Source: Escherichia coli (GTDB lineage Bacteria > Pseudomonadota > Gammaproteobacteria > Enterobacterales > Enterobacteriaceae). From it: DNA of 19,576 nucleotides. Location: NCBI RefSeq assembly GCF_003334765.1, contig NZ_QOWT01000051.1; one strand, written 5' to 3'. Positions 239 to 1,816 of the stretch are shown piece by piece; the stretch's first letter is position 1; each line of letters begins with the position of its first letter. A model generated the notes under the pieces. That model worked only from the letters and a program-made list of their open reading frames with translations, ran no database searches and was not told the origin of the DNA. The position numbers and the translations under genes are program-made.

Positions 239-1537
239 CTATTTCAGCTGTTCGCGAATAAGCTGACCGAGTTGTTTAACGGCGCTCTCCTCACTTTCCC
301 CCCACTGCCAGGCGGTGTTGAAGCGGAAAAAGCGTTTCCAGGTGTCCGAGGTGGAAAACATTTTCCCGGGAGCAATACTGATTTGGTGCGCCAGCGCCTG
401 CGCGGTCAGTTCTCCTGCATCCATTGATTCCGGCAGTTCGAGCCAGAGAAAATAGCCGCTGTTGTTATGATGGATCTTCACGTCGGCAGGCAGGTGACGC
501 AGCAGCAATTGCCAGGCCTGTTGTTTGCGCTCAGCAAGCTGACGGCGCAAGCGTCTAAGATGGACGTCATAGCGACGGGTAGACAGGTAATCGACCAGCG
601 CCAGTTGCATGGGCGAACTGGTCGACAGCGTGCTCATTAATTGAAGGCGCTGAATAGTGCGGGCGTGCTTGCCGGCAGCCAACCAACCAATGCGAAAGCC
701 CGGAACCAGACACTTCGAGAATGAAGAACAGTGCAGGATCCGGTCGCTGCGATCCCAGGCTTTGGCGGGTAACGGTTTTTCGCGGCCAAAGTAGAGTTCG
801 CTATACACGTCATCTTCAATCAGCATCACATTATGCTTGTCAAGGAGCGCGACTAGCCGCGCTTTTTTCGCCGGACTAAGCGTAAAGCCAAGCGGGTTCT
901 GACTGTTGGTCATCAACCAGCACGCTTTTACCGGATAATCCTGTAACGCCTGTTCCAGCGCCGCGAGATCGATTCCCTCTTTCACGTCGGTCGCCACTGA
1001 CAGCGCTTTAAGCCGTAATCGCTCCAGCGCTTGCAGCGCGCCATAGAAACAGGGGTTTTCCACAATCACCCAGTCGCCGGGCTCGGTGACCGCCTGTAAG
1101 CTCAGATTAAGCGCTTCTAACGCACCGGCGGTGATGACAATGTCATCCGGCGAGACGGTTATGCCCTGCTGAGCATAGCGACGGGCGATGGCATGACGCA
1201 GCTCTGCGTTGCCAGGCGGCAGATTTTCGAGCACGCTCATGGCGGTCGCGGTTTTGCTCACCTGCGCCAGCGAGCGGTTAAGTTGCTGGAGCGGAAACAG
1301 GCGCGGATCGGGAAACGCCGAGGCGAACGGCATGACCGAGGCATCACGGCTGGCCTGTAACATCTCAAAAATAGAGGTATTGATGTCGACAGCCTCATCA
1401 CGCATAACCAGGGCAGGCTGCACGGTCGGCTGGAGAATCGGGCGTGGCGCGACGTAATAGCCGGACTGCGGACGCGCAATAATTCGCCCCTGACTTTCCA
1501 GCAGTTGGTAAGCATGTCCGACGGTCATGAAGCTCAT
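239..1537 (-). CDS. MocR/GntR-family transcriptional regulator with PLP-dependent aminotransferase-like domain
   Basis: 432-aa ORF; N-terminus (MSFMTVGHAYQLLESQGRIIARPQSGYYV) is the distal half of a GntR winged HTH, followed by a long aminotransferase-fold domain. The rest of the HTH (RIKKYQRLAEQLCEQIASGAWRPGDRLPSLREQVASSG) is encoded in frame directly upstream of the first ATG with no ATG/GTG/TTG before the upstream stop, so the true start is unresolved. Divergent from the cytochrome bd operon. Confidence 0.8.
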   Translation of the reverse strand: MSFMTVGHAYQLLESQGRIIARPQSGYYVAPRPILQPTVQPALVMRDEAVDINTSIFEMLQASRDASVMPFASAFPDPRLFPLQQLNRSLAQVSKTATAMSVLENLPPGNAELRHAIARRYAQQGITVSPDDIVITAGALEALNLSLQAVTEPGDWVIVENPCFYGALQALERLRLKALSVATDVKEGIDLAALEQALQDYPVKACWLMTNSQNPLGFTLSPAKKARLVALLDKHNVMLIEDDVYSELYFGREKPLPAKAWDRSDRILHCSSFSKCLVPGFRIGWLAAGKHARTIQRLQLMSTLSTSSPMQLALVDYLSTRRYDVHLRRLRRQLAERKQQAWQLLLRHLPADVKIHHNNSGYFLWLELPESMDAGELTAQALAHQISIAPGKMFSTSDTWKRFFRFNTAWQWGESEESAVKQLGQLIREQLK

Positions 1538-1689
1538 GCCGCTGCTGGCGACCTGTTCGCGCAGTGACGGCAGACGATCGCCGGGTCGCCAGGCGCCAGA
1601 GGCGATCTGTTCGCAAAGTTGTTCAGCCAGACGCTGGTATTTTTTTATTCTGGTTTCTCGTCGGTCAATGCAGGTGAGCCTCGCAGTGT

Positions 1690-1730
1690 ATAACAGTGAA
1701 TAAAATTCACAACGATTTGCAAACTGTTAT
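1690..1730. promoter_or_regulatory. Nested inverted repeats in the divergent intergenic region; candidate operator for the MocR-type regulator
   Basis: ATAACAGT (about 1690-1697) and ACTGTTAT (about 1723-1730) are perfect reverse complements and flank an inner palindrome GTGAAT-aaa-ATTCAC (about 1696-1710). Position between divergent genes fits an operator; not tested. Confidence 0.3.
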
Positions 1731-1816
1731 GGTTAAATATGCCTGTTCTGTTTCTGCCCCTCATTGCCTCACACGCCTAGAATTGCGCTGAATCAATTTT
1801 TAATGCGGAGTCAGGC

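Follow-up and report, generated by a model that had tools for sequence, protein, structure and literature searches.

Loss of the ATG start codon of a ydcR-like regulator gene captured by an Escherichia coli IncFII plasmid

The DNA analysed here, a stretch of 19,576 nucleotides from Escherichia coli (contig NZ_QOWT01000051.1 of assembly GCF_003334765.1; hereafter the window), carries a gene for a ydcR-like regulator of the MocR type that has lost its canonical start codon. The gene lies on the minus strand, and its open reading frame (ORF), whose stop codon ends at position 239, is intact except at the start, where the ancestral ATG has become ATA through a G-to-A substitution. This mutation is fixed in a plasmid lineage, and no alternative canonical start remains that would keep the domains of the protein, as is expected of a pseudogene created by start loss. 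Judged from the sequences, the change is an ordinary start-codon substitution, neither a sequencing error nor a new mechanism. We propose, with a probability of about 0.8, that the gene is now a severe hypomorph or a nascent pseudogene which would supply the full-length regulator at trace level at most.

The substitution is seen directly in DNA alignments. The start region reads AATGAAAAAATA(C/T) in Citrobacter sedlakii (assemblies L005 and L006, and NBRC 105722, here L007), in a Citrobacter amalonaticus-like strain, in Salmonella and in E. coli; that is, all orthologs examined in DNA have ATG AAA AAA TA(C/T) at exactly this spot. The window has AATAAAAAAATA there (AATAAAAAAATAC with longer context), and the G-to-A at 1646 is the sole difference from the orthologs. 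With this single substitution the start disappears, and the A6 run grows to A7. When G is restored at 1646 in a simulation the canonical start returns; run lengths of A6 or A8 give none. The loss of the start, one of the possibilities raised in the preliminary description of this DNA, is therefore borne out as an ancestral ATG turned into ATA by one substitution that neither the C. sedlakii donor nor any ortholog examined has. It had also been considered that orthologs might naturally start at the internal ATG of the gene. They do not: the full-length N-terminus MKKYQ opens 109 of 120 homologs, and in most of another ten this motif, or a form of it with one residue altered (MRKYQ, MKKYE, or a GTG-type V), follows a short upstream extension or an additional Met. 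A single homolog is a real exception, and it is the internal-start call of this very allele.

Residues of the regulator are numbered here from the codon at 1648. The first canonical start in the frame, which opens the sequence MSFMTV, was described earlier as lying inside the GntR-type helix-turn-helix (HTH) domain, with the preceding 37 codons encoding the remainder of it, and both statements hold. The ATG at 1537–1535 is Met38 and falls within the Pfam GntR match (residues 3–66). The 37 codons directly above it correspond to IKKYQRLAEQLCEQIASGAWRPGDRLPSLREQVASSG and, with the residues that follow, give a Pfam GntR domain that is complete from codon 1648, so that the full HTH is encoded only if translation starts at or upstream of 1648. 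The reported lack of a standard start between the upstream TAA and Met38 is likewise correct for this frame, but the TAA at 1647–1645 is out of frame and the true stop lies at 1729–1727; no in-frame ATG, GTG or TTG occurs in the 63 open codons between that stop and Met38. Triplets of the canonical start type make up 5.5% of the codons of this gene in frame, which gives a start-free gap a probability of about 0.12 over 37 codons and about 0.03 over 63. Taken alone the gap is weak evidence, and its meaning comes from the comparison with orthologs.

The predicted protein has the sequence features of the MocR subfamily, namely an N-terminal GntR HTH and a C-terminal aminotransferase-like domain of fold type I with a putative lysine for pyridoxal 5'-phosphate (PLP). 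This residue, K312 in the motif SFSK (codon 715–713), aligns with the SK motif of the aminotransferase 1wst, and GabR (4n0b) is matched over residues 4–431. Amino acid identity, with 100% coverage in each case, is 98% to the C. sedlakii protein, 93% to that of C. amalonaticus, 88% to that of Salmonella, and 85% to YdcR of E. coli. Together with a donor neighbourhood that resembles that of Salmonella (rlhA ... ydcR, aldehyde dehydrogenase, srfBC), the full-length identity points to an ortholog of ydcR.

The allele recurs in public records. ATA followed by A6 is present in 12 further full-length E. coli copies (L001, L002 and L013–L022), and five more E. coli records at 99.9–100% identity also carry the allele, for a total of 17. 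The sequence ATAAAAAAATACC is found in a 99.4% variant (L002) and in ten further assemblies (L013–L022), which stem from different projects and include a deposit from 2013. The 469-aa protein is borne by 618 contigs and the 432-aa version that begins at Met38 by 297. We sought the identical protein encoded with ATG in ten E. coli loci sampled for two protein records (P0121 and P0124), and ten of ten have ATA.

With regard to translation, the preliminary description had suggested initiation at a rare codon, with ATT or CTG as candidates. A near-cognate candidate does exist, but it is neither of these; it is the ATA at 1648–1646, which occupies the position of the orthologs' ATG and is the start used by RefSeq/PGAP. 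In E. coli reporters, initiation at AUA amounts to 1–2% of that at AUG in one system and to 0.02–3% across others (bioRxiv 10.1101/063800). According to the same report, AUU (in infC and pcnB) is the only natural non-canonical E. coli start that has been confirmed, AUA being without confirmation (bioRxiv 10.1101/063800). The computed Shine-Dalgarno pairing is weak for the ATA at 1648 (-3.0 kcal/mol), and amounts to -3.2 kcal/mol for Met38 and -1.9 kcal/mol for Met41.

In the proposed course of events, a ydcR ortholog reached the IncF plasmids of E. coli on a 5.9-kb piece of the C. sedlakii chromosome. In the plasmid lineage the last base of its start codon (window position 1646) mutated, and the DNA-binding domain is no longer preceded by any canonical start. 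The AUA at the native ribosome-binding site would still be usable, but with an efficiency of about 1% of that of AUG, so that the full-length regulator would be present in trace amounts at most. The loss was probably tolerated, the regulator being a dispensable plasmid passenger, and the host's own YdcR could bind the conserved operator. What we infer is the reduced expression, a dispensable regulator and complementation by the host YdcR.

The origin of the DNA agrees with such a course. The window is IncFII plasmid DNA, with repA, the CopA RNA, finO, hok/mok and IS66. The chromosomal fragment that includes ydcR is bordered on the left by IS3 and is followed on the right by a 3'-5' exonuclease gene, yacAB and the repA region. 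The donor matches comprise NBRC 105722, which was retrieved through a start-region pattern that allowed any base at the third start-codon position, and two Logan assemblies. The donor gene order is rlhA/ydcP (U32 peptidase), DUF2474-cydB-cydA-like, the divergent ydcR, aldehyde dehydrogenase, ghoT, and srfC/srfB. The plasmid segment with the cytochrome bd-type oxidase and ydcR can thus be traced to a capture from C. sedlakii. Decay is evident elsewhere in the fragment too, since its U32 peptidase gene has been frameshifted and truncated (Table 1).

A sister plasmid lineage bears on the dispensability of the regulator. At least 28 plasmids of E. coli, Salmonella and Shigella have AT-AAAAAA (A6) at the start, which is a frameshift in ydcR. 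In this lineage ydcR is cut at about window position 1578, or about codon 60 (L003, 3180–3380; L023, 5150–5260), and cydA-cydB-DUF2474 are intact. Derived bases are held in common with the window, for example in the Q21R codon. Since the sister plasmids have a ruined ydcR next to an intact oxidase operon, the fragment persists without a plasmid-borne regulator. The G-to-A may have been followed by the loss of one A, or the G may have been lost and one A gained thereafter. The complementary part of ydcR, from 1578 downstream, was observed on a further plasmid (NZ_JBRFVM020000002.1).

Several results weigh against a gene reduced to trace expression or on its way to a pseudogene, and they lend themselves to an alternative that we regard as unlikely: AUA would be a genuine, selectively maintained weak start, and IncF plasmids widespread in E. 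coli would yield full-length regulator in a small yet functional quantity. In RefSeq records whose DNA is 100% identical, a coding sequence (CDS) is placed at 1648..239 with an ATA start (WP_024193684.1), and RefSeq treats the gene as intact, with no pseudogene flag, an annotation that implies this reading. Apart from the start, the 469-codon ORF is intact in every full-length copy, over hundreds of contigs. The ATA is placed exactly at the native ribosome-binding site, initiation at AUA is measurable in E. coli, and a few molecules of a transcription factor suffice for a cell. Leaving the start aside, 11 synonymous and 7 nonsynonymous changes fall on the plasmid branch of ydcR, and the ratio of nonsynonymous to synonymous rates (dN/dS) is about 0.2. 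Relaxed selection on this branch was not detected against the oxidase genes (7 nonsynonymous and 11 synonymous changes in ydcR versus 7 and 16; Fisher p = 0.74), for which the changes are too few; cydA has 6 synonymous and 4 nonsynonymous changes there, and cydB has 10 and 3. Nor did dN/dS of ydcR differ significantly between the plasmid branch and the chromosomal branches (p = 0.42; few changes). There is no positive sign of neutral decay, a pattern that would fit a mutation of recent date as well as ongoing selection on a protein expressed at a low level.

What speaks against a maintained AUA start is, above all, that no ortholog shares the near-cognate codon and all of them have ATG; conservation among orthologs would be expected of an evolved non-canonical start. 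Most of the divergence on the branch may predate the mutation. The regulator is ruined in the sister plasmids, which nevertheless retain the oxidase operon, and it is therefore not needed for the persistence of the fragment. In addition, several derived residues occupy conserved sites: none of the seven amino acid changes of the plasmid branch is present in four C. sedlakii proteins, four of the seven are residues unseen in 119 homologs, and V323L affects an invariant site near the PLP-lysine region. If the AUA start were nonetheless maintained, the gene would be a natural AUA-initiated E. coli gene and a convenient example of near-cognate initiation.

Initiation at the internal Met38 (1537) appears improbable. 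It would yield a 432-aa protein consisting of the aminotransferase-like domain without a working HTH, which might dimerise and interfere with the host YdcR. Met38 is the first canonical start in frame, and the corresponding protein is deposited on the 297 contigs mentioned above. MocR proteins dimerise through the aminotransferase-like domain, as established for GabR, which the regulator matches. Against this, the Shine-Dalgarno pairing is poor for both Met38 and Met41, the site falls within a domain that all orthologs conserve and hence was not shaped as a start, and the 432-aa entry is a mere outcome of gene callers limited to ATG, GTG and TTG. Two conflicting models are thus already deposited for one DNA, 469 aa from ATA and 432 aa without half of the HTH. 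The mutation of an ancestral ATG settles which of them reflects the history of the gene, and neither product can safely be assumed to be made at a normal level. The practical importance is small.

Still less credence can be given to the in-frame ATT at 1669–1667, seven codons upstream, from which a slightly extended full-length regulator would be made. ATT does serve as a rare start in E. coli (infC, pcnB), and within the region anti-Shine-Dalgarno pairing is strongest for this codon (GAGG, -5.9 kcal/mol, 9-nt spacing), but the extension is found in no ortholog's protein, ATT is as inefficient as ATA, and the codon sits on the margin of the conserved promoter/operator block and may fall outside the mRNA. 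An error of sequencing or assembly in the homopolymer or an adjoining base, which would leave the real plasmid with a canonical start and had been proposed earlier as a mis-called T7 run (at about 1641–1647, one position off from the actual 1640–1646), is hardly credible: homopolymers are error-prone and the related lineage does differ in run length (A6), but the reading frame passes through the run unbroken, no change in run length creates a start, and the same ATA and A6 recur in the 12 further copies and the five records at 99.9–100%, from different projects and years.

A regulator weakened or silenced by the point mutation of its ATG thus remains the reading that we prefer, and such a change of a start codon in passenger DNA belongs to a known type of event. 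Compared with YdcR of E. coli and Salmonella, the plasmid gene is alike in length, in the position of the MKKYQ N-terminus, in the layout of GntR HTH and aminotransferase-like domain and in the upstream block; it differs in its ATA start, its place in a captured fragment on a plasmid, and the adjoining bd-type oxidase operon. With infC and pcnB (AUU) it shares an AUN near-cognate codon at a native ribosome-binding site, where low-efficiency initiation with the initiator tRNA would be expected. The near-cognate start of infC is conserved and serves the autoregulation of IF3, whereas that of the plasmid ydcR is a recent, lineage-specific mutation of a codon that is ATG in the orthologs, and for this reason the ATA would not be an evolved start of the infC/pcnB type. 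The likeness to start-codon-loss pseudogenes in plasmid passenger DNA extends to the mutated start, the lack of a canonical replacement, the neighbouring pseudogene, the flanking insertion sequences, and the frameshifted and truncated sisters. Unlike such pseudogenes, the plasmid ydcR retains an otherwise intact ORF, has no excess of nonsynonymous changes and is not flagged by RefSeq. In literature searches we found no publication describing the loss of the ydcR start, this plasmid region or the handling of ATA starts by annotators.

The positions of the features discussed are collected in Table 1.

Table 1. Features of the ydcR region in the window, with strand (+ or -) where one applies.
Feature	Position	Strand	Details	Basis
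IS3	1-103		left border of the fragment	
Captured chromosomal fragment	104..6019		5.9 kb; 98.2-98.4% identical to Citrobacter sedlakii	alignment
ydcR-like MocR-type regulator gene	239..1648	-	469 codons from the ancestral start position	translation; RefSeq CDS with identical ends (WP_024193684.1)
Aminotransferase-like (fold type I) effector domain	314..1237	-	residues 138-445	Pfam PF00155, E 2e-33
GntR-type winged HTH coding region	1451..1642	-	residues 3-66; model positions 1-64 of 64	Pfam PF00392, E 1.5e-12
Met38 (MSFMTV), first in-frame canonical start	1535..1537	-	within the HTH; product of 432 aa, without residues 1-37	
A7 homopolymer (T7 on the plus strand)	1640..1646		ancestral A6 of codons 2-3 (AAA AAA) plus one A through the G-to-A	
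Out-of-frame TAA	1645..1647	-	overlaps aTAAaa; also ends the 7-codon upstream ORF in the +1 frame	sequence and frame check
ATA at the ancestral ATG start position	1646..1648	-	mutated base 1646: minus-strand A, ancestral G	ortholog alignments
Conserved block upstream of ydcR	1655..1732	-	about 75 bp; putative promoter/operator	conservation in five species
In-frame upstream stop TAA	1727..1729	-	63 codons above Met38	frame check
Cytochrome bd-type oxidase operon, divergent	1817..4355	+	three intact ORFs: subunit I 1817-3217, subunit II 3217-4227, DUF2474 4227-4355	
U32 peptidase (rlhA/ydcP-like) pseudogene	4460..6019	-	1-nt deletion near 5663-5668, 27-nt deletion near 5924, 5' end gone (about the first 373 nt)	

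The block upstream of ydcR contains a perfect 8-bp inverted repeat, ATAACAGT (1690–1697)-N25-ACTGTTAT (1723–1730). It is conserved in the five species whatever the neighbouring gene, be it the oxidase, hicB, a peptidase or hicAB, which marks it primarily as a feature of ydcR, and it is probably autoregulatory. A predicted sigma-70 promoter of the oxidase operon overlaps the block (TTCACA at 1706, a 16-nt spacer, TATGGT ending at 1733, and an upstream TG), and a regulation of the oxidase by YdcR is for this reason possible in the present arrangement. The adjacency of the two is not a conserved one: the oxidase is missing from this locus in E. coli and Salmonella, and in C. amalonaticus hicB lies between ydcR and the oxidase. 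The YdcR of the E. coli host is identical at 57 of 66 residues of the HTH region, and the host operator is also similar, so that the host protein could act in trans on the plasmid operator; this would also account for the tolerated loss of the plasmid copy. The earlier proposal that loss of the regulator deregulates the oxidase operon is accordingly weakened, given that the adjacency is not conserved, that the block travels with ydcR, and that the host has a similar YdcR. As a candidate promoter of ydcR itself, the sole sigma-70 hit on the minus strand overlaps the start codon and was dismissed as not credible. No RNA family was found by Rfam in the intergenic region between ydcR and the oxidase operon. 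In S. Typhimurium, YdcR directly activates srfN (review PMC7400052). In the C. sedlakii donor, srfB and srfC are located close to ydcR.

A short upstream ORF (uORF) of seven codons was noticed at 1645–1668 on the minus strand (TTG ACC GAC GAG AAA CCA GAA TAA), behind a GAGG motif that resembles a Shine-Dalgarno sequence. Its stop codon and the ATA overlap by two bases (AUAA, where the ancestral C. sedlakii sequence has AUGA), a layout like that of translational coupling, and the uORF might aid the use of AUA by termination-reinitiation. As a conserved feature the uORF (TTG 1668) was rejected and is treated as a product of chance, since it is absent from E. coli, Salmonella and C. amalonaticus.

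Further observations concern the surroundings of the captured fragment. Elsewhere in the window, Rfam matches were obtained to CopA (9425–9515, plus strand, 91 bits) and to AS-pc02 (11111–11295, plus strand, 214 bits), which are usual antisense RNAs of IncFII plasmids. One E. coli assembly (L013, 3554–4410) has a defence-like gene of the SIR2_2/nSTAND type, not IS3, downstream of the ydcR with the ATA allele; the fragment is therefore present in several plasmid contexts. On a 466-kb E. coli contig (GCA_013359025.1), the ATA allele at 4001–5410 and the oxidase operon lie about 2.6 kb from cobU/cobS, a context which suggests that the fragment has been integrated into a chromosome.

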